From contig JBDKLD010000075.1 of NCBI GenBank assembly GCA_039795715.1, positions 1-51,084 of the forward strand: a stretch of 51,084 bases of DNA. The letters run 5' to 3'. The notes beneath the pieces were generated by a model that made no database searches, was not told where the DNA came from, and saw nothing but the letters and a program-made list of their open reading frames with translations. Below are positions 2,604 through 27,835 of the stretch, in pieces; position 1 is the first letter of the stretch; each line of letters begins with the position of its first letter. The stretch is from Candidatus Parcubacteria bacterium (GTDB lineage Bacteria > Patescibacteriota > Minisyncoccia > Phycocordibacterales > UBA9973). A program made the position numbers and the translations under genes.

Positions 2604-2671
2604 GTATATATTATAGCTTATATCTGAGTAGTGGAAATAAAAAAACACGACCTTAGTCATGTTTTTTCTTG

Positions 2672-2755
2672 TGCGCGGGAGAAGACTTGAACTTCCATGC
2701 CCGTGAGGGCGCTACCACCTCAAGGTAGTGCGTCTACCAGTTTCGCCACCCGCGC
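2672..2755 (-). tRNA. tRNA-Leu (anticodon GAG), long variable arm
   Basis: The reverse complement has GCGCGGG/CCCGCGC acceptor and anticodon stem CTACC/GGTAG with loop TTGAGGT. Variable arm is CGCCCTCACGGGCAT and T arm is GGAAG-TTCAAGT-CTTCC. No CCA is encoded. Confidence 0.9.
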
Positions 2756-3154
2756 TTATTCTGCAGCAGCTTCTTCCATTACTTCTTCTTCGTGCTTGCC
2801 TTTCTTAGTATACATCTTCATCTTGCGGGCGACTTCGCGAGCGGCCTTTTCTCGGACGTAGTAGAGCTTTGAACGGCGGACACGAGAGCGTTTGACCACT
2901 TCGATTTTGTCGATATTTGGAGAGTAGAGCGGGAAAATACGTTCGACACCGACACCGCTCGCAACCTTGCGAATAGTGAAAGTAGCGCCAGCTTCAGAGC
3001 CGTGCTTACGAGCCAAAACGAGACCTTCAAATGCCTGGAGACGGACTTTGCCCTTATCCTCGATTTTTGACCAGACACGCACAGTGTCGCCAGAGGAAAA
3101 CTCAAGCTTTTTGCGCTCGTCGCTATTAACTGGGGTCATTACTTTCAGTGCCAT
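2756..3154 (-). CDS. rplS: 50S ribosomal protein L19
   Basis: 132 aa. [31 protein letters not shown] and [17 protein letters not shown] are typical L19 blocks. The stop directly abuts tRNA-Leu. Confidence 0.93.
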
Positions 3155-3185
3155 AATGGACGTTACTTTAGCATGGAATACTTAG

Positions 3186-3974
3186 TTATGCAAGATTGAA
3201 CTCCTCCGGTACTGGTGCCTCAAAAACCCTGTCCTTACCATCTTTGCCGACAAAGCTGAGCTTCGCCGCATGGAGCATGAGCCTTGGGTATGCCGCAATA
3301 GTCTTGTCATCACCGTAAAGCTTGTCGCCGCCAACTGGGTGGTTGACGTGCTTCATGTGCACGCGGATCTGGTGCGTGCGACCGGTGCGTGGGCGAATAG
3401 AAATGAGGCTCCATTCAGTACCAAGCGCATCACGAGTTTTGCCAAGCACGCGGTAATCGGTCACTGCATCACGGAGCTCGCCTCTTGTTCCCTTGCCCGA
3501 ACTGTTCAGGCCGAGCCATTTGCGAAAATCATTTTTTGAGCGCCCAATCGGTACGGAAATCGATCCGATATTTTCTTTGAAACCTCCGCGCACAATAGCG
3601 AGGTACTCTTTCTTCATCGTTCGCTCCTGAAATTCTTTTTTTAGTGCAAAAAAAGTTTCACTATCTTTAGCAATAATCATTACACCTGAAGTATCTTTGT
3701 CGAGACGATGCACAATGCCCGGACGATAAATGCGGAGTTCGCCGGTGCCGTCATCGTTCATTTTGTACTCATGAGAAGGTAAAGCGCAGCCGGCAACGAC
3801 ACCTTTGCCGAGCGGGATGACGAGCGGTTCGCCGACAAGCTTGGTCACCTTTCCTGTATCAATTAAAAAATCCGCGAGACTTTCCTCGCAAGTGTGACCG
3901 TCGCCATGAACAAGCAGACCAGAAGGCTTGTTGATCACGAGTATTTTTTCATCTTCAAAAATGGTATCAATCAT
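3186..3974 (-). CDS. RluA-family pseudouridine synthase (no S4 domain)
   Basis: Catalytic motif HRLDKDTSGVMIIAK plus the C-terminal GRTHQIRVHM block. Confidence 0.85.
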   Translation of the reverse strand: MIDTIFEDEKILVINKPSGLLVHGDGHTCEESLADFLIDTGKVTKLVGEPLVIPLGKGVVAGCALPSHEYKMNDDGTGELRIYRPGIVHRLDKDTSGVMIIAKDSETFFALKKEFQERTMKKEYLAIVRGGFKENIGSISVPIGRSKNDFRKWLGLNSSGKGTRGELRDAVTDYRVLGKTRDALGTEWSLISIRPRTGRTHQIRVHMKHVNHPVGGDKLYGDDKTIAAYPRLMLHAAKLSFVGKDGKDRVFEAPVPEEFNLA

Positions 3975-5314
3975 GCAGCCTCTTCGAAATCATCGCTAGT
4001 GATAGTTTGCGAATATTGCTCATTTTCAAATTCAATAATGAGTTCGTTTAACCGTCTTGATGTTTTATCGTCGTGTGGAATCAATGTCATTTTTTTTATA
4101 TCTTCACTATCCTCCCCCAACTCTATTATCGACTCTTTAACGGCATCGTATTGATCAGCTATCGAATTGCCGTACTTATGAGCAAAAATTGCGAGTATAT
4201 TACATTGAGTAATTATTTGATTCATAAGTTCATTTTTCATTGCACTATTTCTGTAGTCATTTTCAACATTTGGATCAGTAATATTTTTAAGCATGTAGGC
4301 AAGTTTTTTGACTTCACTGAAACTAAAATAGAGAATAGCTTTTGGAACAGCAAATCTCTCTCTCATTTTTCCTGAGTGATCTTTGAAGTATTTTACCTTG
4401 GTTTTATAACCATCTTTAATTGAACGCAGAAGTTTAAAAACTTTTTCTTTGTATTGCTCACTATGTAACCCACGGTAAGTAACATCAATACCAAGTCCCA
4501 TAAATTTACTTTCCATGTCCTCCCCTATTATCTCCATCATATCGTCAACACCATTTCTGACATCATCAAATCGTGAAGCAGGAGTAATTTTTACCCGGTT
4601 TGTATACCAATCAAGTTTAGTCACGCCATACTCGAGTGCGATTTCAGTAATTGTGGCAATTTTTTTATTTTTAACAATACCTTCAGAAGAAACACTGTTA
4701 AACTTTTGTTCCTTATGATCAATAAGTTCTAGGTCTTTTTTTACTTCTTCATTACCACCCTTGATTAAACCAGCTTTAGCGAACTCGTAGTAGTATTCAT
4801 CATTTTCTTGGCTTTTTGTTTTTTCTAGAACAAGTGCTGCCTCGTGGAGAGAATCGAGTTCTTCCGGGTCATTGAAAACTGCATCTCTTTCTTCTTGTTT
4901 CTTTTTTTCTTGGGAAAATGCCTCGAAGTTTTTATACAACTCCTCATCTTGAATGACATTAAAGTTAATCTCTTTTTTCTCAACAACTATTGGAATAAAT
5001 TCTGGTTCGAGTTTTATCTTTGCTTTTTTTTCAGGCTTTGCTGCTTCAATAATTTTCCCGGAAGTTTTGAGTATGTTCAAAACATCACTTACAATTACGC
5101 CATCTTTTATTAGTCCAGTTGCCACAAGTGCTGCCTCTGCCTCCGCATCGGTCAATGGTGTGTTAAATTGAGAAAGCTTACCTGTTTCGATTCTCAACGC
5201 GATACGATTGGCAGCCTTATCGGCAAGCATGGCTTCCTTTGAAGCAAAGACTTTCCCATCATCGGCAGGACTTTGTGGTGGAAGATTTTCAGAGCCATTA
5301 AATTTAGGATTCAT
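3971..5314 (-). CDS. Hypothetical protein, AT-rich orphan
   Basis: 447-aa uninterrupted ORF that is acidic and Lys-rich. I recognise no motif. It overlaps the next gene by 4 nt. Confidence 0.55.
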   Translation of the reverse strand: MNPKFNGSENLPPQSPADDGKVFASKEAMLADKAANRIALRIETGKLSQFNTPLTDAEAEAALVATGLIKDGVIVSDVLNILKTSGKIIEAAKPEKKAKIKLEPEFIPIVVEKKEINFNVIQDEELYKNFEAFSQEKKKQEERDAVFNDPEELDSLHEAALVLEKTKSQENDEYYYEFAKAGLIKGGNEEVKKDLELIDHKEQKFNSVSSEGIVKNKKIATITEIALEYGVTKLDWYTNRVKITPASRFDDVRNGVDDMMEIIGEDMESKFMGLGIDVTYRGLHSEQYKEKVFKLLRSIKDGYKTKVKYFKDHSGKMRERFAVPKAILYFSFSEVKKLAYMLKNITDPNVENDYRNSAMKNELMNQIITQCNILAIFAHKYGNSIADQYDAVKESIIELGEDSEDIKKMTLIPHDDKTSRRLNELIIEFENEQYSQTITSDDFEEAA

Positions 5315-7938: not shown

Positions 7939-7999
7939 TTTTATTTTCCCTTTATATTTTCTTTATTACGACTTCACCTTCGGTTGAGAAACTGAAAGG

Positions 8000-8509
8000 G
8001 TGAAAAATTATAAAAGAAATCCCAACACCAAATGTGTTGTCTGTACAGCCCCTATTTACCGAAGACCGTCTGAAATTGAGCACAGCAAAAGACGAGTATT
8101 CTGTAGCCAAGCTTGCTATGGTATATATAATAGGAAGGAAATCCCGTGTCTAGTTTGTGGGGCATTAATTCTTGCTGGTGCAAACAAGAAAACGTGCAGT
8201 AGGGCATGCGCAAATAAGCACAGAGCTGGTATTTCATATAAAATAAACAGACCACGAGATAAAGTTAAAAGTCAGAGGAGTTTGAAAATTAGGTTATTGG
8301 AACAAAGGGGAAGATTGTGTGAAAGGTGTGGGTATAACAAGCAAGAGATTCTGGAAGTGCACCACAAAGATAGGGATAGAGGTAACAACGAGCTTGATAA
8401 TTTAGCATTAATTTGTCCGAATTGTCACGCAGAAGAGCATTATCTAAAAAATAGTTGGTTGACAAATATCGGGAGGCGTGGCGGAGTTGGTCTATCGCAC
8501 TCGTCTTGA
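8000..8509 (+). CDS. HNH endonuclease with N-terminal Cys-rich (zinc-ribbon-like) repeats
   Basis: GTG start. HNH core is CERCGYNKQEILEVHHKDRDRGNNELDNLALICPNCHAEEH. The last ~13 codons read into tRNA-Ser. Confidence 0.75.
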   Translation: MKNYKRNPNTKCVVCTAPIYRRPSEIEHSKRRVFCSQACYGIYNRKEIPCLVCGALILAGANKKTCSRACANKHRAGISYKINRPRDKVKSQRSLKIRLLEQRGRLCERCGYNKQEILEVHHKDRDRGNNELDNLALICPNCHAEEHYLKNSWLTNIGRRGGVGLSHSS

Positions 8510-8557
8510 AAACGAGAGTTCCGCAAGGGACCGTGAGTTCGAATCTCACCGCCTCCG
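8472..8557 (+). tRNA. tRNA-Ser (anticodon TGA), long variable arm
   Basis: GGAGGCG/CGCCTCC acceptor. Anticodon stem CTCGT/ACGAG carries loop CTTGAAA. Variable arm is AGTTCCGCAAGGGACC and T arm is GTGAG-TTCGAAT-CTCAC. Confidence 0.9.
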
Positions 8558-10021
8558 CAGAGTAATATCATCTTGATAAGATGCTATCAAATTGAAGGGA
8601 GAAACCATTGTAAACTCTAACTTTTTTTCGTTGAGTGTGCAGTTCTGAAGTAGGAAACCAAGAAGTTGGCGTTTTTCCTCTACTTCGGAACTCATAAAAA
8701 TCTCTTTCGCTCGTTTAGCTATATTTAACATCATGTTTGCGGTCAAATAGAACTGTTCATCGGCAGTCGAATGCTCTTGCATCTGCGACAGTATTTCTGC
8801 CTGCTTTTCTTTGTACTCTTTCAAATAGTTGTCATACAAATCATCTGTAATACGTCCGTCGAGGCGGTCTTCGTACATTTTTCGCAAACGGACATCGTAC
8901 TTGTCGTATTCGGCTTTGAGTTCGTTGAGGCTGGAAGTGTAAAACTTGTTTTCACTTTCGCCTATTTCCTTCAACCCGCTTGTTATGTCCTGTATTTGCT
9001 GGTCTGTGAGCTTCAGGCTGTCGAGTACAGGGTAAATCTGCTGTAGAAGCTCGTCCTCGGTCGCATTTGCCTTGTGAGGGCACTCTTTGTAGCCAGAACA
9101 GCCGTAGTAAACATACTTGCCCTTTTTGAGCTGTCCGCCAATCGTGCCTTCACAGTGAGCACAGGTAGCCAATCCTCTGAAGATAAAAGGTATTGAGGCG
9201 TATTTGGTCGGGACTTTGTTGTGCTGCAACATGACTGCTTGGCAGGCATCAAAAAGCTCTTTGGAAATGAGCCGCTTGTATCTATGCCAGTATCGGAGCT
9301 TGTGCGTTCGAGAGTACGCTTCGCCATAGTAAAAAGTGTCATTCAAGATTTTGAAAATCATTGCATGGTTTACTTTCTTGCCTGACGTGCCACGCAAGCC
9401 GAGGTTATACATTCGGTCTGCAAGCGTTTTTACCGACACGTCGCCTTTGGCGTATTCTTCAAAAATCTTAACGATGAAGTGAGCTTTTTCGTCTGGCACA
9501 ACATCAATTCTTCGACGACGTATTGGATTGTCATTGTAGATGCTTTTGCAGCCGAGGACAGGTGCACCTGTTACTTCGCCGTCTTCCCTCATCTTGTCGT
9601 GCTTACGCTTCACGTTGTCGCTCAACTGCAAGACGTAGCTTTTTGCGAACATCACGCCCATATCCCAGCGAAGAATGTCGGCACTGTTCGATTTCTTGTT
9701 GATGACAAGCCCTTCTCGGTAAAAATGTATTTCCACTTTTCCTGCCTGTCGTAGCTCTTCAAAAATAACTGACTCTTTGAAGCTACGCTGAAGACGGTCA
9801 ATCGTATCGACGACAACCGCGAGTGTTTCTTTTGATGCTTTTATTATCTCGATAATTTCTTGGAACTTTACTCTGTAGCCCTTCGTTGAGGACTCTTTGA
9901 GCTTGATAACTTTCCATTCTTCAAGCCCCTTCCCTTTGGAGTATTCCAAGATACGAGAAAGTTGCGCATCATTTGAGTCCTGATTTTTGTCGGACTCTCT
10001 GGCTAAAATGATTGCTTTCAT
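8546..10021 (-). CDS. Large serine recombinase (integrase)
   Basis: 491 aa. It has an N-terminal resolvase-type domain (MKAIILARESDKNQD, VVVDTIDRLQRS), a recombinase domain, the Cys cluster CAHCEG...YYGCSGYKECPH, and a C-terminal coiled coil. The last 4 codons and the stop lie inside the tRNA-Ser 3' end. Confidence 0.85.
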   Translation of the reverse strand: MKAIILARESDKNQDSNDAQLSRILEYSKGKGLEEWKVIKLKESSTKGYRVKFQEIIEIIKASKETLAVVVDTIDRLQRSFKESVIFEELRQAGKVEIHFYREGLVINKKSNSADILRWDMGVMFAKSYVLQLSDNVKRKHDKMREDGEVTGAPVLGCKSIYNDNPIRRRRIDVVPDEKAHFIVKIFEEYAKGDVSVKTLADRMYNLGLRGTSGKKVNHAMIFKILNDTFYYGEAYSRTHKLRYWHRYKRLISKELFDACQAVMLQHNKVPTKYASIPFIFRGLATCAHCEGTIGGQLKKGKYVYYGCSGYKECPHKANATEDELLQQIYPVLDSLKLTDQQIQDITSGLKEIGESENKFYTSSLNELKAEYDKYDVRLRKMYEDRLDGRITDDLYDNYLKEYKEKQAEILSQMQEHSTADEQFYLTANMMLNIAKRAKEIFMSSEVEEKRQLLGFLLQNCTLNEKKLEFTMVSPFNLIASYQDDITLRRR

Positions 10022-10094
10022 ACGTTGTTAGTTTTTTATTTGTAATTTTCTCGGAGCTTTCAAATCTACTGTGAAGTAGTTACTTTTGAAAACA

Positions 10095-11084
10095 CTAGAT
10101 GTCGTTAGGCAGCACTTGCCCATTTACAGTCAGGCTGTAGCTCTGAATGGTAGGAAATTGCAAGAGAGTATTTTTTATCTGCATTGATGACCCTGTGACT
10201 CCACAAGAACCGCCTGTCGAAGGTTCTTTTGAAATATCAAGGTAAGCAACGCCATTAGTTATCGTCAGTGAGTTTATTACTACTCCTTGTTGAATGAAAC
10301 TTCCATACCCTGCAGCACTCTCTGCTGCGGTCGGACCCGCGAAGAGTTTTTCTAGGCTTGCTCGTGCAACTGCAGATGTTTGTGGGATTGACCTATTAAC
10401 AGCGTAATTGATGCGACAATCTGGTAACCCAGGGTTAGAGACGGCATTGTAAAAATATACTTTTATATTCGTCGTAGAGGATTGCTGTTGTGTTGGGTTT
10501 GGTTGTGGCCAAGGAGTAATTGTAAACGGTGTAAGGACTTTGGTAGCAGCAATCTCGCCATCTGCTTGGGCGTCGCCAGCAAAATGAAGTGCAATTTGGT
10601 TTGTCGAAGGAGAGCTAGTAAGACTTGGGATTGTAGCGATAATCGGCCAGTGTTGCATTCCAACGGAGTAATCGCCAACTGTCTTTATTTTTACTGCAAC
10701 GCTTTTCGCGCTTCCGCTTGTATCTCTAACAACTACATCGCCCGCAGTTCCTTCAAATGCACCCCATTTTAGGCACGTTCCTGCTACAGCACTGGCAGTG
10801 TCGATGTAGCCAGTTATATTCAGCGGGAAAGAAACTGTGTGGTTTATTGTCGGCGAAGTAATGACAAGGCAGCTATTAGTTCCAGTTTGTGGTGTTGTTA
10901 TATTTGTTGCTTGCTGCGTATTCTGACCCTGATTGGTTGGCAAATTGTAATCTGGTGTTTCTGTGGAAGTAGGAGTTACTTTTGAACTCTGGCTCATATA
11001 ATAAGCTCCGCCCCCGACCGCCAAAACAGCTACGATAATCAAGATAACTGCGATTGGTGCAAAACCTTTATTTAGTGTTTTCAT
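10095..11084 (-). CDS. Secreted Gmad2 (Ig-like) plus GerMN domain protein
   Basis: N-terminal TM anchor. VSFPLNITGYID...WGAFEGTAGDVVVRD is Gmad2-like. The C-terminal KVYFYN...ASLEKLFAGPT...GVAYLDIS is GerMN-like. Confidence 0.6.
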   Translation of the reverse strand: MKTLNKGFAPIAVILIIVAVLAVGGGAYYMSQSSKVTPTSTETPDYNLPTNQGQNTQQATNITTPQTGTNSCLVITSPTINHTVSFPLNITGYIDTASAVAGTCLKWGAFEGTAGDVVVRDTSGSAKSVAVKIKTVGDYSVGMQHWPIIATIPSLTSSPSTNQIALHFAGDAQADGEIAATKVLTPFTITPWPQPNPTQQQSSTTNIKVYFYNAVSNPGLPDCRINYAVNRSIPQTSAVARASLEKLFAGPTAAESAAGYGSFIQQGVVINSLTITNGVAYLDISKEPSTGGSCGVTGSSMQIKNTLLQFPTIQSYSLTVNGQVLPNDI

Positions 11085-11117
11085 ATAGCTTGAATGGTAC
11101 TACTTTTTGTGGTTTTA

Positions 11118-12254
11118 TCAACGCTCCGACGAGTGCATATCTGTTGGTAACTTATACGGCGCAAAGCGGGTCAAATTGTCCTTTATCTGCTTTACCCAGC
11201 CGTGATATGCCTTGCCTGAAATCTCATCGAGAAATGGTAGGTCGTCTGCTATTCGATACCATGTTCGGGTCGTGGCGTATCGCTCGATGATTGCCCTTGT
11301 TCCCCGTATGCCTTCCTTGCTCATTACCCTCAAACCGAGCAGGTACAGAGCTTCTTTCGGACTTACCTTTGGCTTGTTTTTGAAGATAGCGTCGAGCGTT
11401 TTGGTCGGACTGCTTTCAACATCGAAAAGAAATAGATTTTTGCCAGTGATGAGTTCATTCCAGTAATCGAGCAGCACTTTTTGGCAAAGGTCTTTATTGA
11501 ACACGTCTTTGAACGTCGGGTTTTCATTGAAGCCGAGTCGTTTCAGAATAGCGTTCAATTTTACCTTCTTTGCGAGCCGTGCTTCGATGCGCAAAATCTC
11601 TTTCTTTTCTTTTTTCGTCAGTGTTTCAAAGAGCGTAAGCTGAACTGCATTTTGGTCTTTGTCTATTGCTCGCTTCTCTGGTTTTTTCAGGTCTTGCACC
11701 TTGTCATAGATGACGAGCGAGTGTGAGTTCGTGTAGAACTGAAGCGAGTGCCCGTTGTTCCTGAAACTATCTCGGTTCAAATCCATTTTCTTGCTCACAT
11801 CAATTTTGTGAAGTTCGTTAATGACAAAGCTCGAAGTGTAGCCGTCAGCCAGTTCGATGTTCTTTGCTGGATGAAAAGCCGACACGCTGGCTTTCCGTAA
11901 AACTTCTTTCTGTACTTCAACTCTCATCGTCAGCATCGCATCGTAGAGAGCTGAAATCACTTTTTCAAAATCCTTTCCCTCAACTTCCTCAACATTGTTT
12001 CCGTGAAGCATCTTGGCAACAGAGAACTCTATTTTGAGCGGTATTTCATTACCGTTTTTTGTCGGTCTTTTCATCAGGGTCAATCGTGGCTTATACCTTT
12101 CGTTTTTCTTGTCCGTCGAGGTCGGATTGTTCACGCATTTGACGAGAAAGTTCCCAGCCATTTTCAGAATGTTTGCGTTCGGCGTAAACGCATTTGGGTC
12201 GAGCTTATATGACCCTCTCGGTATGGTTAGTATTACTGTGTCCAGCATATTCAT
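11118..12254 (-). CDS. Rolling-circle replication initiator, filamentous-phage gene II / CRI-like
   Basis: MLDTVILTIP parallels the MIDMLVLRLP start of f1 gpII. LKIEFSVAKMLHGNNVEEV parallels VEIKASPAKVLQGHNVFG. ILRIEARLAKK parallels LVRFEARIKTR. The comparison is from my memory of the f1 sequence. Confidence 0.55.
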   Translation of the reverse strand: MNMLDTVILTIPRGSYKLDPNAFTPNANILKMAGNFLVKCVNNPTSTDKKNERYKPRLTLMKRPTKNGNEIPLKIEFSVAKMLHGNNVEEVEGKDFEKVISALYDAMLTMRVEVQKEVLRKASVSAFHPAKNIELADGYTSSFVINELHKIDVSKKMDLNRDSFRNNGHSLQFYTNSHSLVIYDKVQDLKKPEKRAIDKDQNAVQLTLFETLTKKEKKEILRIEARLAKKVKLNAILKRLGFNENPTFKDVFNKDLCQKVLLDYWNELITGKNLFLFDVESSPTKTLDAIFKNKPKVSPKEALYLLGLRVMSKEGIRGTRAIIERYATTRTWYRIADDLPFLDEISGKAYHGWVKQIKDNLTRFAPYKLPTDMHSSER

Positions 12255-12558
12255 TACTTCTTTTATTTTGATAAGACAAAATCTCTTCTGCTTTTTCGAT
12301 AATCGCTCGCTCTATTTCTGAAGCCATATTCCTGCGTATCGGATGAAAAACATTGAAGTTTTTGCCGTTCAGATTTTTGGTCGGATAGGTTATGCGGTAG
12401 CCCGTTCCGTCGAGCTTGGTATGCACGCCGATTGAGCCGAGGTACAAACTGCCGTCCACAACGACGCTTGCGATTGCGACCAGCCCATTATTCGGCTTGA
12501 TTGGTATTACTTGTATTTCCGTTATTTGCATACAGATGCGGATTAACTCTTTTATCAA
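12205..12558 (-). CDS. SpoVG-like DNA/RNA-binding protein
   Basis: MQITEIQVIPIKPNNGLVAIASVVVDGSLYLGSIGVH resembles the SpoVG N-terminus. The true start may be that Met at 12531. The 3' end overlaps the Rep gene by about 50 nt. Confidence 0.5.
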   Translation of the reverse strand: MIKELIRICMQITEIQVIPIKPNNGLVAIASVVVDGSLYLGSIGVHTKLDGTGYRITYPTKNLNGKNFNVFHPIRRNMASEIERAIIEKAEEILSYQNKRSNEYAGHSNTNHTERVI

Positions 12559-12664
12559 CCTTCAGCAACAGACCGAAAAAACCGAGTACATTGTTTCGCT
12601 CAATTTCGTTGAGGTCTTTCATCGACCAGTCCGTATTTTCTTTTTTGCTTTTTCTTGCGGACAT

Positions 12665-12693
12665 AAAAAACCCTGAAGGTTGTATGTTCAGGG
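12665..12693 (-). terminator. Rho-independent terminator after the 12730..13956 gene
   Basis: On the minus strand, CCCTGAA-9 nt-TTCAGGG is followed by TTTTTT. Confidence 0.6.
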
Positions 12694-12729
12694 TATGCTT
12701 ATGCCTATTTACAAAAGTTTACAAACTTT

Positions 12730-13956
12730 CTATTTCTTCAAATAAGCCTTATTTATATTGATATTTTTGGTACTCACGACCAAGAAATCTTTGATTTTCG
12801 TGTCCTGTGCCACAGTCTGATTGACGGCTTTACCTGCTTGGTAAACCTTGTTTGCAGATACTTTGTCGTCGAATGAATAGCCCCAATCTTCGAGCACTTC
12901 GTCGCTTGCCCACACCTTGCGCTTGTCTTTGAAGAGCGTCCGCAATAGCTTATGAGGGTCACTTTCTTCTTTTTTGCCTATGAGGATTTTTTCGTTATTG
13001 AAATAGAGTATTCGGCTTTCTTCATCAAAACGAGGGTCGGATTTTGCAGTAGGAGCATCTGCTTGAAGTAGCTCGGCAACAAGGTATGAGTGTACTCGCT
13101 GGGCGTAGCGCTTATAGTCAGCTACACGGAAAATAACCAAATCATTGTCCGATGCTTCGCCTGAACGTATCTTTTCCATTTCGCCGAGAACGCCGATAAA
13201 ATTGAGCCAAGTCCATCGGGCAGAAGGGTCACTGGCCACAGTTGCCCTCAATTCGTCGGTTATTTCGTCAGGTTCAAAGACAAGTTTTTGAACAAGCGGC
13301 ATTTCGTGCCAAGCGCCCCACGGTTCAACTTGCCCTTTCCGTTCGAGCTTCCTTTTCTCTTCGTCAATTTTTTCATAAGTAGGCGAAAAGGTGTAGTTGC
13401 CGTATATGTTTGTTACCTTTTTGCCGTCGTCCTCAAACTCTTTGATTGCCGCTTCGTGGCCGCTTGCTCGGATTTGTCTGGCAACGCCGAAAAGGTCACT
13501 GTCGAGTGCATAGAGCGGGTTAGACGAAAGTATATGTCCGTTTAATTGGTCGTGAACTTCTTTCAAAGCACTGGCAATGCGGTCGTAATCATTTTGATAA
13601 ACTTCAACGGCTTTTATGGCTGGCTTCGCTTTTTCCGCCATCTTTTCAGCCGCTTTTTGAGCTTTTTCCAATGCTGGCTTGTATTTGTCTATAATTTTTT
13701 GCGCAATTTCAGTGACCCGCTCGGCTGATTTCCGAAGCTCGGTCATTGCTTGCGAGTTCATCAGTTCGTATACCTTGCTTGCAGTTTGCCGCTGTTTTTC
13801 GAGGGCTGTAATGAAAGGTTTGGTTTCCGTCAGCTCTTGGACTGTCTTTATGTATTCGGCAAGGCCGTGAAAAAAGCCCCATTTATCCTGTTGGTCTATA
13901 AAGCTCTTATACTGCTGCTCAATGATTTTGAGAGCTTTTTCATTACTGTTTTCCAT
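12730..13956 (-). CDS. Hypothetical protein with N-terminal coiled coil
   Basis: Long ORF. The ATG at 13956 (MENSNEK...) has AAGGG 11 nt upstream and is preferred over the GTG at 13980, which lies inside a hairpin. No motif recognised. Confidence 0.55.
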   Translation of the reverse strand: MENSNEKALKIIEQQYKSFIDQQDKWGFFHGLAEYIKTVQELTETKPFITALEKQRQTASKVYELMNSQAMTELRKSAERVTEIAQKIIDKYKPALEKAQKAAEKMAEKAKPAIKAVEVYQNDYDRIASALKEVHDQLNGHILSSNPLYALDSDLFGVARQIRASGHEAAIKEFEDDGKKVTNIYGNYTFSPTYEKIDEEKRKLERKGQVEPWGAWHEMPLVQKLVFEPDEITDELRATVASDPSARWTWLNFIGVLGEMEKIRSGEASDNDLVIFRVADYKRYAQRVHSYLVAELLQADAPTAKSDPRFDEESRILYFNNEKILIGKKEESDPHKLLRTLFKDKRKVWASDEVLEDWGYSFDDKVSANKVYQAGKAVNQTVAQDTKIKDFLVVSTKNININKAYLKK

Positions 13957-13990
13957 TACATTTTTACCCTTACACTGCACGCTGTGCAGT

Positions 13991-16170: not shown

Positions 16171-16187
16171 ATCCTGAAGAAGCGCTA

Positions 16188-16239
16188 AAATACCCTTACT
16201 GGGCTTGAACTCGTGGGTACTTAACTCAGACAGCCCGCA
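16188..16239 (+). repeat. 52-nt direct repeat, copy 1
   Basis: aaatacccttactgggcttgaactcGtgggtacttaactcaGAcagcccgca. It differs from copy 2 at 3 positions. Confidence 0.9.
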
Positions 16240-16302: not shown

Positions 16303-16800
16303 ATGGAACATTTGCCATCAGAGAATACAAATAAACATGAAAAATCCCCTATCAAAGATGGGGTCGATTTTGTGTTTGAAAAAAATCCAAATCTCGCTCA
16401 AATTGGTGCAAAAGACCAGTATTCAGAATATTTAGATACCATATTCCCTGATAGTGTTATGCGCATGATTCTTTATCGTGGAGATAATATAAAATTTTCT
16501 TTACCCACAGATAATAATACCGGTGTCTATTTAACAACAAACAGAACCACTGGTTCTCAATATGGAGATCGATTAACCATGGCACTTGTAGAAACAAAAA
16601 ATCCATATCACACACAAGATATGCCTGGCATGTACTGGAAAAGAATTATCAATAAATCTGACAGATTATCCACACATGATTCAATCATATTAAATGGTGG
16701 TCAAGAACTTATTATTGCACCTAAAAAAATTCATTTATTGGGATCCGATCAAGATTTGGAAAACTTTAGAAAATTTGTCGAAAATCACAAAGACTCATAG
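16303..16800 (+). CDS. Hypothetical protein, possible ADP-ribosyltransferase-like fold
   Basis: 165 aa. ILYRGD, GVYLTTN and GGQELII have spacing reminiscent of the R / S-T-S / E triad. This is weak motif-level evidence only. Confidence 0.5.
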   Translation: MEHLPSENTNKHEKSPIKDGVDFVFEKNPNLAQIGAKDQYSEYLDTIFPDSVMRMILYRGDNIKFSLPTDNNTGVYLTTNRTTGSQYGDRLTMALVETKNPYHTQDMPGMYWKRIINKSDRLSTHDSIILNGGQELIIAPKKIHLLGSDQDLENFRKFVENHKDS

Positions 16801-16829
16801 GGCTGGTTTAGAGCTACAGAGAAGTGTTT

Positions 16830-16881
16830 AAATACCCTTACTGGGCTTGAACTCATGGGTACTTAACTCACCCAGCCCGCA
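16830..16881 (+). repeat. 52-nt direct repeat, copy 2
   Basis: aaatacccttactgggcttgaactcAtgggtacttaactcaCCcagcccgca. Confidence 0.9.
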
Positions 16882-17692: not shown

Positions 17693-19204
17693 TTATTTAT
17701 GGCTAATAAGCTCACTTAAGTATGATTTAACTTTTTTCATATCAATCGATTCACCGGATTTCAACTTTGATTCAGCATCAATCGAAAAATTAATTTTATA
17801 GTGTTCTTTCATTTCAAAATATGAAGAAAGCAGGCCGGGACCAAATCCCCCACAGAGCGCGATGTCATTAATACCTTTTTCTAAAAGTGTATCGATCTTT
17901 TTCTCTATATTGGTCTTTGCATCCTGTTTGCCAGCACCTCGGCTGTTGTCAATCATCAAAAACGTCTTATGTTTCAAGACTTCCTCGACAAATTCCGGAT
18001 CATCCACCAAATGGAATTCCTCGTCCGAGAGAGGAATATCAACCAAGAAAAACTTATTGGCATACTTGAGTACTTTCAAGTGGTCGCTAGTTAAATCATT
18101 TAGTCGAATATATTTAACATATGGTAACTTTTCTCTAATGAGCGCAACGTCTTTGAGAGGGTCGGTTGAAAATTTGAATGTAAAATGGAGAATTGGCACG
18201 AACCCTTCGAAATATTCGGAAGCTTTGCAGATTGCTTCAATTTTCTTCAATTCATGCGGATCGTTGAGAATGTGCGAATCGGCATACACACCGAGGCAAA
18301 TTTTGAGCAATGGATCTTTCTTTAAGCCCGCCATGAAATTGCCGATTTCAGTGACCTGCTCCGGTGACTCAACATAGGTGAATTGATAAAAGTAATTGCT
18401 CTCATCTTTTCCAAAAAAGTGCTTGAATTTTTGTCGCTTTGTTTCGAAGTAACGTCGATTGTAACTGTTACTTTCAATGACCAAAGGAATGCGGTCAGTA
18501 ATGGTAATGCCTAATCTCGCAATTTCAGAAACCTTTGAAGGATTGTTTGTAATCAACTTTATTTCTTTGACGTTCAAGTAATCAAGAACTTTTTTTACCC
18601 AAGAATATTCTCGGTAGTCTGGTTTGTGACCTAAAAGAATATTGGCTTCATGAGTATCATATCCTTTATCCTGCAGGATGTAAGCTTTAATCTTTTCATG
18701 TAAACCAATACCGCGCCCTTCTTGGCGAAGATAGATAAAGACTCCATTGCCACTTTCTGAGATCATAGAGAGTGACCGGTCTTTTTGTTCTTCGCAGTCA
18801 CATCGATAACTATGGAATGTATCCCCTGTCAGACACTCGCTATGGACTCGTACGAGAACTGGTTTACTGGTATCGAGGTTTGGTGTTTGTAAAAAAATAA
18901 TCTCTTCACCTTTTTTCTGATTCCAAACATTGAAATAAAATGTGCCCTGCTTTGTAGGAAGAAGGGTGCCGACAATATCGTTTTCTGGTATATCCCTTGT
19001 TTCTACTTTGCCTGTGCGTATTGCATCAACAGGAACGTTATAGAGATCAGACAATAATTTTGCCTGACTAAGAGTGACCTCTTTCTTTCCGTTCTCAATC
19101 AGGGTTAACGTAGGGCGAGAAATACCCAGCCGTTTTGCTATCTCATTTTGAGATAAATCCGCTGCTTTTCGGAGGCGGGTAAGCAATTTAGGACTATTTT
19201 TCAT
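17693..19204 (-). CDS. Three-domain fusion: XRE-type HTH + GTP cyclohydrolase II (RibA) + phosphoribosylanthranilate-isomerase-like TIM barrel
   Basis: The HTH is LSQNEIAKRLGISRPTLTLIENGKK. RibA blocks are VRVHSECLTGDTFHSYRCDCEEQ, YLRQEGRGIGLHEKIKAYILQDKGYDTHEAN and LITNNPSK. TrpF-like blocks are LKICLGV, FLMIDNSRGAGK, IALCGGFGPG and NFSIDAESKLKSGESIDMKKV. Confidence 0.75.
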   Translation of the reverse strand: MKNSPKLLTRLRKAADLSQNEIAKRLGISRPTLTLIENGKKEVTLSQAKLLSDLYNVPVDAIRTGKVETRDIPENDIVGTLLPTKQGTFYFNVWNQKKGEEIIFLQTPNLDTSKPVLVRVHSECLTGDTFHSYRCDCEEQKDRSLSMISESGNGVFIYLRQEGRGIGLHEKIKAYILQDKGYDTHEANILLGHKPDYREYSWVKKVLDYLNVKEIKLITNNPSKVSEIARLGITITDRIPLVIESNSYNRRYFETKRQKFKHFFGKDESNYFYQFTYVESPEQVTEIGNFMAGLKKDPLLKICLGVYADSHILNDPHELKKIEAICKASEYFEGFVPILHFTFKFSTDPLKDVALIREKLPYVKYIRLNDLTSDHLKVLKYANKFFLVDIPLSDEEFHLVDDPEFVEEVLKHKTFLMIDNSRGAGKQDAKTNIEKKIDTLLEKGINDIALCGGFGPGLLSSYFEMKEHYKINFSIDAESKLKSGESIDMKKVKSYLSELISHK

Positions 19205-19438
19205 AATGAGAGTATCTTACTATATGTAAAGATAATTGTCAATAATTTTGTAATAAAATATTACATTTTAACCTTACGGTGTTGCTGTAGGGCAAAAAAG
19301 TGTCTCATTTGTCTCTTTAGGCAAAAACCGAATAGAGACTCACCGACCTCAGCTCGGCATCCAGAAAAATGCTATACTTAGCATGGAGTATTCAATGGTC
19401 GATTTTAATAATTACCATACTATTTTACTTTACACTTT

Positions 19439-19591
19439 ATGCTTAGAACTATAGCAATAATCTTACTTGTCCTTTGGCTCCTTGGTTTTCTCGGTTTTCA
19501 CGTTCTTGGAAGCTTCATTCACATTCTCCTCGTGGTCGCGATTATATTCTTCTTGATTCACATCATTCGGGGCGAAAATCCACTGAAGTAA
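19439..19591 (+). CDS. Small membrane protein (lmo0937-like family)
   Basis: 50-codon ORF below the track threshold: MLRTIAIILLVLWLLGFLGFHVLGSFIHILLVVAIIFFLIHIIRGENPLK. This is the typical sequence pattern of that family. Confidence 0.6.
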   Translation: MLRTIAIILLVLWLLGFLGFHVLGSFIHILLVVAIIFFLIHIIRGENPLK

Positions 19592-19654: not shown

Positions 19655-20242
19655 ATGGAAAACATATCGCCAGATGAAAAGCTTTTGCCAATCGAAATCA
19701 TAAAAGATAAGATTTTCTATATTCGAGGTAAAAAAGTCATGCTCGATAAAGACTTGGCTCTACTGTATGGCGTACCGACCAAGCGTCTCAACGAAGCAGT
19801 AAAGAGGAATATTGGCAGATTCCCACTAGATTTCATGTTTCAGCTAGATAAAAAGGAAGCTGGACTATTTTCAAGGTCACAAATTGTGACCTTGAAACCT
19901 GGAAATACAGACAGAGGTAATGGTAATCCTTCTCTAAGGTCGCAAATTGCGACCTTAGAGACCGGCAGGGGTAAGTATGCAAAATACTTGCCAATGGTTT
20001 TCACTGAACAAGGCATTGCTATGCTCTCCTCTGTCCTCAATAGCGACAAGGCAATTCAGATAAATATTCAAATTATCAGAATTTTCATCAAACTCAGGGA
20101 GATGATCGATGCCTACCAAGACCTTCGTGAAAAAGTCGAGGAAATGGAGCAGAATAATGAGACCAATTTTAGAGAAATATTCAGAGTAATCAAACTCCTC
20201 ATAGTCAAAGAAAATAGGCCCAAAAGGGAGATTGGTTTCTAA
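19655..20242 (+). CDS. ORF6N (KilA-N-like) domain DNA-binding protein
   Basis: IFYIRGKKVMLDKDLALLYGVPTKRLNEAVKRNIGRFPLDFMFQL, RSQIVTL/RSQIATL and KYLPMVFTEQGIAMLSSVLNS are the typical ORF6N-family blocks. Confidence 0.8.
   Translation: MENISPDEKLLPIEIIKDKIFYIRGKKVMLDKDLALLYGVPTKRLNEAVKRNIGRFPLDFMFQLDKKEAGLFSRSQIVTLKPGNTDRGNGNPSLRSQIATLETGRGKYAKYLPMVFTEQGIAMLSSVLNSDKAIQINIQIIRIFIKLREMIDAYQDLREKVEEMEQNNETNFREIFRVIKLLIVKENRPKREIGF
19871..19895. repeat. 25-bp palindrome, copy 1 (inside ORF6N gene)
   Basis: tcaaggtcacaaattgtgaccttga. Confidence 0.9.
19934..19958. repeat. 25-bp palindrome, copy 2 (inside ORF6N gene)
   Basis: ctaaggtcgcaaattgcgaccttag. Confidence 0.9.
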
Positions 20243-22182: not shown

Positions 22183-22208
22183 AAAAATACCTTTAAGAAG
22201 GTATTTTT
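22183..22208. terminator. Bidirectional hairpin between tRNA-Arg and the folD stop
   Basis: AAAAATACCTT-taag-AAGGTATTTTT (11 bp). It overlaps the folD stop codon. Confidence 0.65.
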
Positions 22209-23013
22209 ATTTCCCCCATAACACATTCCAAAAAAGACTGGCCACTGTTATTGGTCCGACACCGCCCGGGACTGGTGTCATTAATGAAGCTTTTTCAACG
22301 CACGCCGGATGAATATCTCCAGCCAGCTTCCCGCTTTGTTCACTCGTACCAGCATCAATCAGGATAACGTCTTTTTTAATCACGTTTGGCGTAATGAAAT
22401 GAGGTTCTCCAACGCCGGTAATAATAATGTCGGCATTTTGTATCTCTGCCAGACGTTCGACTATGGACGTGCTTCTCCTTATTTGAATATAGGGAATTTT
22501 TTCTTTGGCTAACATTGCCGCGACCGGTGCGCCAACGAGCCTTCCGTTACCCACAACAAGAATTCTTTTGTTTTCTAAATTGACATTGTTAAGCTTAATA
22601 ATTTCCCAAACTGCCTTTGCTACAGGAGGTACTCGGTCGCCTTCACCCATTCGATATGTATCCATGGCAGCTGCACTCAAGAGATCAATATCTTTATCTA
22701 AAGGAATAGCAGAAATAATTTGCTCCGTATCAAGACCAAGAGGCAACGGCAACTGCACGACGATACCATCATAGGTATCATCCAGGTTGTTTATAAAGAT
22801 TACTGCATCTTCCGTGGTGCGGACTTCTTTCTTAAACCTTGTCGTTGAAATACCGACACGCTCAGCAAAGCGTTCTTTCATTTTCACAAACTGCTCACTG
22901 GCAGTATTATCACTGAATAGAATGAAGGCTACTTTTTTCATGGGCAAATTTTTAAGCTTCAACTTGAGCTCGTTCTCCATTTCATTCGCAATTTTATTGC
23001 CATCAATAATCAT
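22207..23013 (-). CDS. folD: Bifunctional 5,10-methylene-THF dehydrogenase / methenyl-THF cyclohydrolase
   Basis: 268 aa. VGNGRLVGAPVAAMLA and TPVPGGVGPITVASL are typical FolD blocks. Confidence 0.88.
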   Translation of the reverse strand: MIIDGNKIANEMENELKLKLKNLPMKKVAFILFSDNTASEQFVKMKERFAERVGISTTRFKKEVRTTEDAVIFINNLDDTYDGIVVQLPLPLGLDTEQIISAIPLDKDIDLLSAAAMDTYRMGEGDRVPPVAKAVWEIIKLNNVNLENKRILVVGNGRLVGAPVAAMLAKEKIPYIQIRRSTSIVERLAEIQNADIIITGVGEPHFITPNVIKKDVILIDAGTSEQSGKLAGDIHPACVEKASLMTPVPGGVGPITVASLFWNVLWGK

Positions 23014-23017
23014 ATTA

Positions 23018-23653
23018 TTAATTATATCTCTGAATCACCTTTTCAAACTCTTCAATCGAGTACACAAAGTGTAGCCAGTCATATTCCTTCGGATCCTTTA
23101 CTGAAGTACAGAGTGTTTTCATTTTTTCTTTGATGAGGTGCTCCCAGTCTGTACCGTTTTTTGTCTGAAAGAATATAAGCGGTGTCATCTTTATATTATG
23201 TCCCCCATATTTATTCATTCCATCATTCACAACATTTTCATGGAAAACAATAGTCTCCTCTAGTTCAGTGCCGTCCCCACCAAGCGGGCAGACTACGGCA
23301 ATATCGCCAGAAACAACCACCTTCAATCGCTGAAAGATATCTTCTGAAACATCTGTAAATGATGCTTCCTTTACTCTTTCCCATAAACCATCATGCTGTT
23401 GTTGTGGCACGCCGATGTTCAAGAATGGAGAAAGACTATTCTCGGTAATATATTTATTTGCGGTATCACTTGTTGCAGACATTGCTCCCCCACTGTAACC
23501 GCCATGAATAATACCGTAGCCACTTTTGAGCAGTACTTCTGTAAACTGTTCGATTGCTTTGTATTCTTCGCTTGATGGATCTATTGTAGATTTGCCGAGT
23601 ACTGACGCAAAACGATTCGCACCCGATTTTTCTTTCATTTCTTGTAATGTCAT
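23018..23653 (-). CDS. LOG/TIGR00730-like Rossmann protein (nucleotide 5'-monophosphate N-glycosidase family)
   Basis: IIHGGYSGGAMSA and VVCPLGGDGTELEE resemble the GGGxxGxM and PGGxGTxxE LOG motifs. Confidence 0.55.
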   Translation of the reverse strand: MTLQEMKEKSGANRFASVLGKSTIDPSSEEYKAIEQFTEVLLKSGYGIIHGGYSGGAMSATSDTANKYITENSLSPFLNIGVPQQQHDGLWERVKEASFTDVSEDIFQRLKVVVSGDIAVVCPLGGDGTELEETIVFHENVVNDGMNKYGGHNIKMTPLIFFQTKNGTDWEHLIKEKMKTLCTSVKDPKEYDWLHFVYSIEEFEKVIQRYN

Positions 23654-23655
23654 AT

Positions 23656-24492
23656 TTATATGGCAATGGGAAAATTGATCTTCTCCCCGTGCTGATAATT
23701 AGTAAATGTTGTATCTGTGAACTTCCAATTGAGTATACCTGTAAAACTTTCTGTGATAGCGGCGGGATAACTGGAATTTTCTACCTCCAATAACTTCTTC
23801 GCTCCTTCAATATGGTTTTCATAAAGCTCTACCTGTCCGAACATGCCTATTACTTTTCCCTCCTCGTAACCTGTCTCTAAACAAATTAGGTGAAGGAGCA
23901 AGGCGTGCTGAGCAAAGTCATTTGGCAAACCGAGACATACATCTGCACTTCGCTGATAAAATATCAGGCAAAGTTCATCTCCGTATTTAAGTATCTGAAA
24001 AGCAAATGGGCACGGGGGTATCGACTGCTGATCGATGTCTTTCGGATTCCATTGTGATACAACGAGCCTTTTGCTTTCTGGGTTTTCTTTAATTTTCTCA
24101 ATTAGCAACTTAATTTGATCTACTCCTTGGTCCGTGTAATCGCCTATTCCTTTGTAATCAGCTCCAAAATTTCGCCATTCGAATCCATATGTAGGGCCAA
24201 GATCGTTGGGATTTTCTGATTGATTACTTTGCCACTGATCCCAGAAGTGACAGCCGCGATCGGTCAGCCATTTTTTATCTGTGTAGCCCTTGAGATAAAA
24301 TTCAGTTTCCACTCTCATGCTTTTCTGCGGCATTTGACGAAGTGTACATAGTGGGAATCCAAGCTTCATGTCGTGTTCAATTGTTTTTCCCAAAAGACTG
24401 TATGCTGAAATTCCTGATCGAGTTAGCCTCAAGAAACCTTCATTTAAACATTCTTTAATTATTTCTTTGTATTGTGTATCGAAGTTTTTCAT
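23656..24492 (-). CDS. Thymidylate-synthase-fold enzyme, predicted (d)CMP C5-hydroxymethylase/methylase rather than ThyA
   Basis: ThyA blocks are present: TRSG, FWDQW, DLGPTYGFEWR, IPPC and YQRSADVCLGLP. However, LGLPNDFAQH replaces LGLPFNIASY, putting Asp at the Asn177 position. Cys-His becomes Cys-Pro, and GDTHLY becomes GQVELY. Confidence 0.65.
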   Translation of the reverse strand: MKNFDTQYKEIIKECLNEGFLRLTRSGISAYSLLGKTIEHDMKLGFPLCTLRQMPQKSMRVETEFYLKGYTDKKWLTDRGCHFWDQWQSNQSENPNDLGPTYGFEWRNFGADYKGIGDYTDQGVDQIKLLIEKIKENPESKRLVVSQWNPKDIDQQSIPPCPFAFQILKYGDELCLIFYQRSADVCLGLPNDFAQHALLLHLICLETGYEEGKVIGMFGQVELYENHIEGAKKLLEVENSSYPAAITESFTGILNWKFTDTTFTNYQHGEKINFPIAI

Positions 24493-25393: not shown

Positions 25394-26140
25394 ATGAACC
25401 AAATCACTGTTTTACTGCAAAAATATGGGTTTAGCGAACGCCATTCAAAGGTATATCTTCACCTTCTCTCAAGCTTAGAGGATACGGTACTTGGGGTAGC
25501 TAAAGCCACCAATATACCTAGGACGACCGTATATACAATCCTGACTGACCTTAAGGACCAAAACCTCGTATCCACCTTTAGGAAGAACAAGGTTCAGTTC
25601 TGGACGCCAGAAAGTGTAAATCAGCTCCAAGTTAATCTCGAGCAGAAGCAGGAAGTCGCTGACTCCCTCGTTCCCCTTTTACGTGACATCACGAGCAAGT
25701 CCCACCTCGGGGATTCTTCGATCCGTATGTTTACCGGAAAAGAAGGCTTGAAGATCGTTTGGGAAGACATCATTTCCTGCCTCGAAGCCGAGAAGCCGCC
25801 TTTTGTATATGCGATCTCTCATACGGACCTGTATTCTATTTTGCCGAAATACTTTCCAGCGTGGATTGAGAGACGCAGAAAGTCTAAAGTTTTTGCAAAA
25901 CTGATTGTCCATCATGGGCACCAGCACCTTCGTTCTGATAGCGGGCAGGAAGTCCGTGCCATGCCAGAAAAATATATTTTTACAGGCGATCTTACTATCT
26001 ATGGGAAAAAAGTAGCCATCTTTGTATTTGAAAAAGACCGATATGAATCGATTATTATTGACTCTCCTGCTTTCGCACAAATGATTCAGGGAATATTTAA
26101 TTACACCTGGGATAATTTGGGAGAGACGGCAAAGATTTAA
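25394..26140 (+). CDS. TrmB-family transcriptional regulator (wHTH + C-terminal sensor domain)
   Basis: LLQKYGFSERHSKVYLHLLSSLEDTVLGVAKATNIPRTTVYTILTDLKDQNLV is a TrmB-type winged helix. Confidence 0.75.
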   Translation: MNQITVLLQKYGFSERHSKVYLHLLSSLEDTVLGVAKATNIPRTTVYTILTDLKDQNLVSTFRKNKVQFWTPESVNQLQVNLEQKQEVADSLVPLLRDITSKSHLGDSSIRMFTGKEGLKIVWEDIISCLEAEKPPFVYAISHTDLYSILPKYFPAWIERRRKSKVFAKLIVHHGHQHLRSDSGQEVRAMPEKYIFTGDLTIYGKKVAIFVFEKDRYESIIIDSPAFAQMIQGIFNYTWDNLGETAKI

Positions 26141-27073: not shown

Positions 27074-27835
27074 TTATTTCCTGCTATCCCACAACCCCTT
27101 AAAGACTTCCCTTAGATTGTGCGCCATAACAGCGTCATGAATTTCAATGAGGTAATATGGCCTCTGCTTGGTGATGATCATGATGACATATGAACCGACA
27201 ATCCACTGGGTTGCCGAAAATGCATCCGTCGCCCATGGTTTTATATGGCGGCGATGGGAATATTTTTTATCTATCATCTTTTTTTCCACATCAGCATTAT
27301 TTGAAAATAGTTTAAGGTCCCAGTCTTTCGGATCTTCCTTCCATATCCAATCTATCCATTTTTCAAATTTCTCGACAAATGTATGGTCTTGGAAACCCCA
27401 CCATGTGCGCTCCCCTTCTTTCATGCTTTCGTTCCACCTAGGCGCAGCCTCGAATAAGTACTTGTCGAGATCAACTTCATCGACAAACCTGATTTTCGGC
27501 ACTGAATATGTTTTTGACTCTGGGATATTTTTCAAGAAATCCTGCAGTTCGCGAATAGAACTGACTTTGTGCTTTATTTTTTCATTCTCGGCCTCGATCA
27601 CTTTTTCGAGTTCCTTTTCCTTAGCAGGCAGGTAGTAGAGGGTTTTGCCTCCCAAATCTTCAACAATAAGGCCTTTATCTTTGAGCTCCTTAGCCACACC
27701 GTAGACAGTGGTTCTGTTTATCTTGGCTAGCCTAGAAATAAACGCAGGGGCGATCTTCCCATGCTCAAGAATGAGCTTATAGACAGTTTGTTCCTTATTC
27801 CCCAGACCAAGGCTATGCATTACTTTTTCTATCAT
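27074..27835 (-). CDS. TrmB-family transcriptional regulator (second copy)
   Basis: LGLGNKEQTVYKLILEHGKIAPAFISRLAKINRTTVYGVAKELKDKGLI. The C-terminal end, IEIHDAVMAHNLREVFKGLW, parallels the first copy. Confidence 0.75.
   Translation of the reverse strand: MIEKVMHSLGLGNKEQTVYKLILEHGKIAPAFISRLAKINRTTVYGVAKELKDKGLIVEDLGGKTLYYLPAKEKELEKVIEAENEKIKHKVSSIRELQDFLKNIPESKTYSVPKIRFVDEVDLDKYLFEAAPRWNESMKEGERTWWGFQDHTFVEKFEKWIDWIWKEDPKDWDLKLFSNNADVEKKMIDKKYSHRRHIKPWATDAFSATQWIVGSYVIMIITKQRPYYLIEIHDAVMAHNLREVFKGLWDSRK

Follow-up and report, generated by a model that had tools for sequence, protein, structure and literature searches.

A fused helix-turn-helix, GTP cyclohydrolase II and TrpF-like barrel protein in Patescibacteria, with a candidate role in making a pterin from GTP

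The fusion protein and its regulatory site

Contig JBDKLD010000075.1 of Candidatus Parcubacteria bacterium (assembly GCA_039795715.1), analysed here over its positions 1 to 51,084 and hereafter called the window, encodes a 503-residue protein that joins an XRE-type helix-turn-helix (HTH) domain, a GTP cyclohydrolase II (GCH II) domain and a divergent barrel resembling TrpF, the phosphoribosylanthranilate isomerase (PRAI), in a single chain (Table 1). This unusual layout had been proposed in a preliminary description made from the sequence letters, and its domain calls are borne out by Pfam, NCBIfam, hhalign and Foldseek. The same architecture recurs, at 50-91% identity, in more than 100 proteins of independent metagenome assemblies, and the fusion is therefore genuine and no artefact of assembly. 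A chimera, or a frameshift joining separate genes, was accordingly rejected as its source in view of the many independent full-length homologues. The three-part protein is real and is found in uncultivated Patescibacteria. The source labels of the relatives, few of them named, read Minisyncoccia, Parcubacteria group, Patescibacteria group or only bacterium, and of the 29 loci recovered in a scan of species-representative genomes nearly all bear the label of a Patescibacteria lineage. The literature searched contained no paper on a RibA-TrpF fusion, in line with the earlier statement that no such architecture was known to have been described.

The barrel defines a very small family, as phmmer, run exhaustively over 1.84 billion representatives, returned only 52 clusters. 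A family-wide census of architectures found the barrel fused to nothing but GCH II at its N-terminal end, a methyltransferase at its C-terminal end and, as a further partner, an HTH. GCH II is the only upstream partner of the barrel family, and the covalent fusion is kept throughout the more than 100 proteins. The three or four components form an obligate association. Two observations concern the limits of this distribution. One barrel-family cluster (P0188) bears the label Chlamydiales, and a 1.0-Mb contig (L042, 10001-11290) encodes a 429-residue GCH II-barrel fusion without an adjoining methyltransferase, beside the gene of a giant protein that weakly matches Por_Secre_tail; together they indicate that the family may extend beyond Patescibacteria. 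A third observation concerns copy number. The Nomurabacteria metagenome-assembled genome L001 contains two such modules, paralogues separated by about 3.5 kb. One is a 654-residue GCH II-barrel-MTS fusion, the other an HTH-bearing form with a separate 236-residue methyltransferase (2447-4411 and 8001-10203), a pairing that points to two products or to two ways of regulation.

Judged by its sequence, the GCH II domain is bona fide and its catalytic residues are intact. Pfam GTP_cyclohydro2 (PF00925) matches residues 80-240 (E 1e-51, 175 bits, cut-off 23.3), and the NCBIfam RibA models NF001591 and TIGR00505 score 228 and 217.5 bits, above their curated cut-offs of 148 and 205.85. Residues 10-193 of Escherichia coli RibA align with this part almost without gaps. 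The zinc ligands C54, C65 and C67 of the E. coli enzyme correspond to C124, C135 and C137, its Tyr105 to Y175 and its Arg128 to R198, all five being invariant in 43 relatives. The RibA zinc and active-site blocks read from the letters at the outset are confirmed by these cut-offs and by the residue alignment.

The HTH domain is recognised by Pfam HTH_3 at residues 10-60 (E 1e-13). A promoter-like site precedes the gene, and a palindrome with the family consensus TGT(A/T)A-N7-TTACA, a candidate operator, lies just upstream of it. The motif TGTAA-N7-TTACA occurs once in the 51-kb window against 0.12 occurrences expected. It recurs at the same spacing from the TTGACA box in all 11 XRE-bearing orthologues (seven exact, four with one substitution) and in none of 17 HTH-less relatives. 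A regulatory role had been suspected from the HTH, and the conserved operator candidate supports it; AT-rich inverted repeats had been placed at about 19215-19260, and such a repeat is present, but at 19249-19265. Other regulators accompany the family elsewhere. A relative with a MerR-type N-terminal HTH (L004, ~7965-8000) carries the palindrome CATAATAA-GAA-TTATTATG in its promoter spacer, and divergent HTH-less relatives (e.g. L041, 8829-9587) have a divergently transcribed TrmB-family regulator immediately upstream. As the operator tracks the HTH and other regulators take its place elsewhere, the HTH appears to be an optional, lineage-specific autoregulatory addition to a conserved enzymatic core. 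Two TrmB paralogues are also encoded in the window.

Table 1. Positions of the fusion gene, its domains and regulatory sites, and of other features of the window
Feature	Position	Strand	Basis or remark
Open reading frame, 503 aa: XRE HTH + GTP cyclohydrolase II + TrpF-like barrel	17693..19204	-	start ATG, stop TAA
XRE-type HTH domain, residues 7-62	19019..19186	-	Pfam HTH_3, HTH_31; five short helices in model
GTP cyclohydrolase II domain, residues 77-266	18407..18976	-	Pfam, NCBIfam, alignment with E. coli RibA
Divergent TrpF-like (βα)8 barrel, residues 270-503	17696..18397	-	AlphaFold, Foldseek, hhalign
Divergent class-I S-adenosylmethionine (SAM) methyltransferase-like protein, 232 aa	16988..17686	-	motif I ILDVGGGTADI; co-directional, 6 nt downstream
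Promoter-like site TTGACA-17 nt-TAAGAT	19214..19242	-	10/12 matches
Third half-site TTTACA	19225-19230		conserved, in promoter spacer
Operator candidate, perfect palindrome TGTAATA-TTT-TATTACA	19249..19265		6 nt upstream of -35 box
Probable integrated element	8000-13980		beside tRNA-Ser
tRNA-Ser	8472-8558
Large serine recombinase	8546-10021		in probable element
Phage_CRI-type replication protein	11118-12254		in probable element
3-Dehydroquinate-synthase-like (sugar-phosphate cyclase) protein, 321 aa	15205-16170	+	110 bits vs aroB cut-off 305
Direct repeat, 62 nt	16178-16239 and 16820-16881		90% identical
165-aa open reading frame	16303-16800		no family match; weak ART-PolyVal match, E 0.046
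50-aa membrane-like open reading frame	19439-19591		between fusion gene and ORF6N gene
ORF6N-domain (KilA-N/antirepressor-like) protein	19655-20242	+	divergent from fusion gene
folD	22207-23013
211-aa open reading frame	23018-23653	-	no significant Pfam match (SLOG LDcluster4, E 0.0026)
Thymidylate synthase thyA	23656-24492
TrmB paralogues	25394-26140 and 27074-27835
tRNA call (ARAGORN), anticodon TTA ('Stop')	38974-39047	-

A barrel remotely related to TrpF

No model of Pfam, NCBIfam or PADLOC matches residues 270-503, and searches of PDB sequences with phmmer and with two profiles gave nothing significant for them (best hit the PRAI 4aaj, E 0.19). Four lines of evidence nevertheless connect this domain with TrpF, and the kinship they indicate is specific but remote. 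First, distant members of the barrel family exceed the Pfam PRAI gathering score of 22.7 bits (P0170 with 33 bits, P0156 with 24.3 bits), while P0161, P0154 and P0146 fall slightly under it; two of these last three are fused to GCH II. Second, the AlphaFold models contain eight strand-helix units, with a predicted local distance difference test value of 84.9 for the full protein and 90.8 for the domain alone, the latter with a predicted template-modelling (TM) score of 0.89. Third, the top barrel match in both Foldseek searches is the Thermus PRA isomerase 1v5x (E 5e-8, TM 0.63/0.75), generic TIM barrels reaching a TM of about 0.5. Fourth, hhalign comparison of a 32-sequence family profile with four TrpF sequences taken from the PDB gave a full-length alignment with a probability of 87.6% (local) or 93.4% (global) and an E value of 4e-8. 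The same profile reached at most 1.8% against HisA and 0.1% against TIM, and hhalign thereby ruled out both as the closest relatives of the barrel. We are confident that residues 270-503 form a (βα)8 barrel specifically related to TrpF. The proposal that the last ~230 residues are a TrpF-like barrel is upheld by the models, both kinds of comparison and the distant PRAI matches; the opposite outcome, a C-terminal domain unlike PRAI, was contradicted by AlphaFold, Foldseek and hhalign alike.

The profile alignment also fixes the register of the barrel. In strand β6, FLMID419NS..GAGK corresponds to ILLD126T..GSGK, placing D419 at the general-acid Asp126 of TrpF. In β7, CGGFGP corresponds to SGGLNP, in β8 FSIDAES to AVDVSSG, and in β4 IRLND to VQLHG. 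The equivalents of the phosphate loops, GGFG452-455 and S474-x-D-A-E478, align with TrpF β7 and β8 and are invariant or nearly so. Eight residues are invariant across the whole barrel family, namely H340, D419, S421, G423, G425, G452, G453 and D476. In β1, VKIC7GI of TrpF corresponds to YFYQFT276Y, and the position of the general base Cys7 is occupied by T276. Three of the four TrpF landmarks named in the preliminary description (MID..GAGK, GGFGP and SIDAES) are thus in the right register, but the fourth (KIC..G) lies on β2 and not on β1. Of the catalytic Cys and Asp, whose absence had been offered as grounds for doubting the barrel assignment, the Cys is absent (T276) and the Asp is kept (D419). 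Since it falls short of the Pfam threshold and lacks Cys7, the window protein is regarded here as a remote relative of TrpF and not as a member of that family.

A methyltransferase partner and the gene neighbourhood

The gene immediately downstream, which the preliminary description overlooked, encodes a divergent methyltransferase-like protein. It has the DVGGG motif I, its Pfam matches are sub-threshold (Methyltransf_23, E 0.031) and its PDB matches weak. It shares 55% identity with the C-terminal domain of 733-residue four-domain fusions (P0053/57/63) and 64% with the adjoining gene in the Nomurabacteria genome L001, and in P0136 the same type is fused to the barrel alone. Many other relatives have an unrelated methyltransferase of the MTS type (PF05175), a clear domain match, either fused (~660 residues) or adjacent. 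Two unrelated methyltransferase types are thus interchangeable as fused or adjacent partner, and a methyltransferase of one type or the other is almost always present. When open reading frames from 34 loci were clustered, the methyltransferase was the sole recurrent conserved neighbour, followed in frequency by serine recombinases, found near the module in 8 of the 34.

Reading frames of 110 residues or more were scanned across the window. At 8000-13980 lies a probable integrated element beside a tRNA-Ser, for which no att repeat was found; it encodes an HNH endonuclease, a large serine recombinase, a Germane-domain protein, a Phage_CRI-type replication protein and a 416-residue protein. The 3-dehydroquinate-synthase-like gene is isolated, and other loci do not keep it close to the module. 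It was rejected as a pathway partner, as were the GNAT and 165-residue genes of the window, none of the three being conserved with the module in the 34 loci. The 165-residue reading frame is bracketed by the direct repeat and has the appearance of a small cassette or of an intergenic element that is repeated. On the other side of the fusion gene, a membrane-like reading frame and an ORF6N-domain gene are followed, a few kb away, by genes for the folate-dependent enzymes ThyA and FolD, without rib genes. The position between thyA and folD is often held by dihydrofolate reductase. The 211-residue reading frame lies there, which makes its product a candidate for a non-canonical reductase or a protein related to folate. 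The tRNA called with a TTA anticodon could be a suppressor, or a tRNA-Lys(UUU) whose loop was called in a shifted position; recoding of UAA was rejected, since TAA ends 28 of 43 genes in the window, more than any other stop codon.

A possible route from GTP to a pterin, its rivals and its relatives

The preliminary description suggested that the fusion could channel GTP toward a product such as a non-riboflavin pteridine. The product of GCH II is a 5-phosphoribosylamine, and in Chlamydia a TrpF takes this compound V, made by RibA, to 7,8-dihydroneopterin monophosphate by opening of the ribosyl ring, Amadori rearrangement and ring closure, bypassing FolE and FolQ (Adams et al. 2014, mBio, PMC4161248). 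The monophosphate is also formed from GTP when E. coli RibA is paired with Chlamydia TrpF, and the latter complements a folE deletion (PMC4161248). This closest precedent, a two-enzyme shortcut not yet known outside Chlamydia, was not known to the author of that description. It lends substance to the hand-over from one enzyme to the next, while the chemistry envisaged for the window protein stays conjectural. That the GCH II product is also the substrate of the barrel is indicated by the restricted choice of fusion partners, a form of Rosetta-stone evidence, and the Chlamydia precedent leads one to expect a pterin as the outcome.

On this basis we propose a one-chain, self-regulated route from GTP to dihydroneopterin phosphate followed by methylation, and consider the chances of its being correct to be about even. 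The GCH II domain would open the imidazole ring of GTP with release of formate and pyrophosphate, yielding 2,5-diamino-6-ribosylamino-4(3H)-pyrimidinone 5'-phosphate (DARPP, 'compound V'). The TrpF-like barrel would then carry out the Amadori rearrangement of DARPP, with D419 as general acid in the manner of TrpF Asp126. The base probably does not sit at the Cys7 position; since that position is a Thr, another base would be needed if Amadori chemistry has been kept, perhaps H340 or D476. The ribulosylamino product would close to a pterin of the 7,8-dihydroneopterin-phosphate type, and the putatively co-transcribed methyltransferase would methylate this pterin or its immediate precursor. The XRE HTH would bind TGTAA-N7-TTACA and the TTTACA half-site over its own promoter, presumably as a dimer joined by way of the enzyme body, and repress the operon, release probably being under the control of GTP or of the product. 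In favour of the route speak the intact GCH II domain, the kinship of the barrel with TrpF and its conserved equivalents of Asp126 and the phosphate loops, the folate-dependent ThyA and FolD encoded in the window, where the scanned reading frames include no rib genes, the interchangeable methyltransferase partners and the operator motif confined to HTH-bearing forms.

Several findings weigh against this route. Pfam PRAI (PF00697) does not match the window protein even at E<=1, and the close subfamily on its own reaches only 7% against TrpF in hhalign, so that the barrel has diverged strongly and may have altered its chemistry. The TrpF base is replaced, the T276 position being held by S, T, H or rarely C in relatives, and C303 of the 'KIC' motif, on strand β2, is invariant in the close subfamily only and variable across the family. 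E. coli TrpF is unable to perform the compound V reaction (PMC4161248), and homology to TrpF is therefore no guarantee of it. No folB, folK, folP, queD or other pterin-using gene is adjacent to the module in about 35 loci, and a few divergent relatives (P0176, P0201) have no adjoining methyltransferase. As regards a bypass of FolE, the scanned reading frames of the 51-kb window include thyA and folD but no folate-biosynthesis (folB, folK, folP and folE among them) or que genes.

In the foremost rival the hand-over is the same, but the barrel turns DARPP into something other than dihydroneopterin phosphate, examples being another cyclisation, a retro-aldol or TrpC-like ring closure and a stable ribulosylamino-pyrimidine, the methyltransferase then completing a novel methylated pyrimidine or pteridine that serves as cofactor, signal or antibiotic. 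The loss of the Cys7 base together with a different invariant set (H340, S421, D476, E478), a methyltransferase without counterpart in the Chlamydia route, the two paralogous modules in one genome and the missing folate-pathway neighbours all speak for such a product. Closure to a dihydropterin, however, is the chemically expected fate after an Amadori step (PMC4161248), the barrel still has the general-acid Asp of TrpF and its two phosphate loops, and the 34 loci share no further tailoring enzymes beside the module. We regard this rival as rather improbable, though a serious contender. One specific version of a non-riboflavin end product, the toxoflavin-like compound once suggested, is not supported, as no ToxC/D/E-type genes are present.

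A different view would make the protein primarily a transcription factor, whose GCH II-barrel body senses GTP or a metabolite and bears little or no catalytic flux. The XRE HTH with its conserved operator at its own promoter, and the precedent of the enzyme-repressor fusions BirA, NadR and PutA, lend themselves to this. Most family members, however, have no HTH or a different, MerR-type one, and the catalytic residues of GCH II and those on the catalytic face of the barrel are all invariant. Because the operator motif is single in the 51-kb window, there is also no sign there of a wider regulon. A sensor of this kind is unlikely.

Slightly less likely still is an ordinary RibA of the riboflavin pathway with an accessory C-terminal domain, for instance one that replaces RibD-type processing. 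The RibA cut-offs of NCBIfam are exceeded, and the sources name the relatives 'GTP cyclohydrolase II'. However, none of ribD, ribH, ribE and ribB occurs among the scanned reading frames of the window, where the absence of the first three had been noticed before, among the conserved neighbours of the 34 loci or in the ~35 related loci. The barrel, kin to an isomerase, shows neither nucleotide-cofactor nor deaminase features, and a methyltransferase has no role in riboflavin synthesis. Lastly, a mobile-element or defence function, with GTP depletion or a toxic nucleotide analogue under an XRE switch, could be read from the recombinases near the gene, from the recombinase, Phage_CRI replication protein, HNH endonuclease and ORF6N gene of the window and from the match of the HTH to PADLOC HTH models, but is very improbable, as the enzyme body and the neighbours have no PADLOC defence-system match, no homologue occurs in IMG/VR or INPHARED (50,697 phage genomes), where a phage auxiliary gene was sought and rejected, no att-like repeat of the tRNA-Ser encloses the locus, and many related loci are plain housekeeping neighbourhoods.

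Patescibacteria, the Candidate Phyla Radiation (CPR), are usually thought to lack cofactor biosynthesis. If the proposed pterin route is correct, some of these bacteria make a GTP-derived cofactor precursor themselves, and what was a curiosity of Chlamydia, GCH II and TrpF replacing FolE, becomes a dedicated, fused and regulated pathway across several Patescibacteria lineages, with the fusions as independent Rosetta-stone support for the Chlamydia route. The methyltransferase partner predicts a methylated product that has not yet been described. A fuller form of the proposal, that CPR bacteria make an undescribed methylated pterin or pyrimidine from GTP with GCH II, a TrpF-like isomerase using a base other than that of TrpF, and a methyltransferase, the enzyme doubling as a product- or GTP-responsive repressor, is tentative and in our view doubtful. 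The barrel is in addition of use for work on how (βα)8 barrels evolve, as it forms a small TrpF-superfamily branch that has no annotation and whose catalytic base has changed, and the enzyme-repressor fusion with its defined operator candidate is a testable one-component regulatory system.

The relation of each part to known systems can be put as follows. With E. coli RibA (2bz0), the GCH II part shares 40-44% identity in the Foldseek alignments, in an almost gapless alignment with identical zinc and catalytic residues, but it lies outside a riboflavin gene context and is fused at both its N- and C-terminal ends. With TrpF (PF00697; T. maritima 1nsj/1lbm, T. thermophilus 1v5x), the barrel has in common the fold and a full-length profile alignment, the β6 motif LLD..GxGK with its general-acid Asp, the GG-loop of β7, the S/G phosphate site of β8 and QL(H/N)(G/D) in β4. 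It differs in that the identity is about 13-15%, that it is some 35 residues longer and lacks the general base Cys7, and that it is fused behind GCH II outside a trp operon context, no trp genes having been found in the window or the related loci. Enzyme-repressor fusions are known in BirA, NadR and PutA, which resemble the window protein in having a DNA-binding domain fused to a biosynthetic enzyme and an operator over the own promoter, with feedback control possible. The HTH class and the enzymes are different, and ligand control of DNA binding in the window protein is a conjecture.

The nearest parallel is the pair RibA and TrpF(CtL2) of Chlamydia. In both cases GCH II supplies, or would supply, compound V, a (βα)8 isomerase of the TrpF family would be the next enzyme, 7,8-dihydroneopterin monophosphate is the product to be expected by analogy, and the host has a reduced genome and still uses folate-dependent enzymes. 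The two are separate proteins in Chlamydia and one polypeptide here. The window barrel is far more divergent, with no PRAI match and a Thr at the Cys7 position, and PRA isomerase activity therefore cannot be assumed for it. Here a methyltransferase comes in as an obligatory third partner, some lineages have an XRE or MerR HTH in the chain, and no fol genes are linked. What is new relative to the Chlamydia pair is that the two enzymes form one chain, that a methyltransferase accompanies them and that, in this lineage, the protein presumably represses its own gene.

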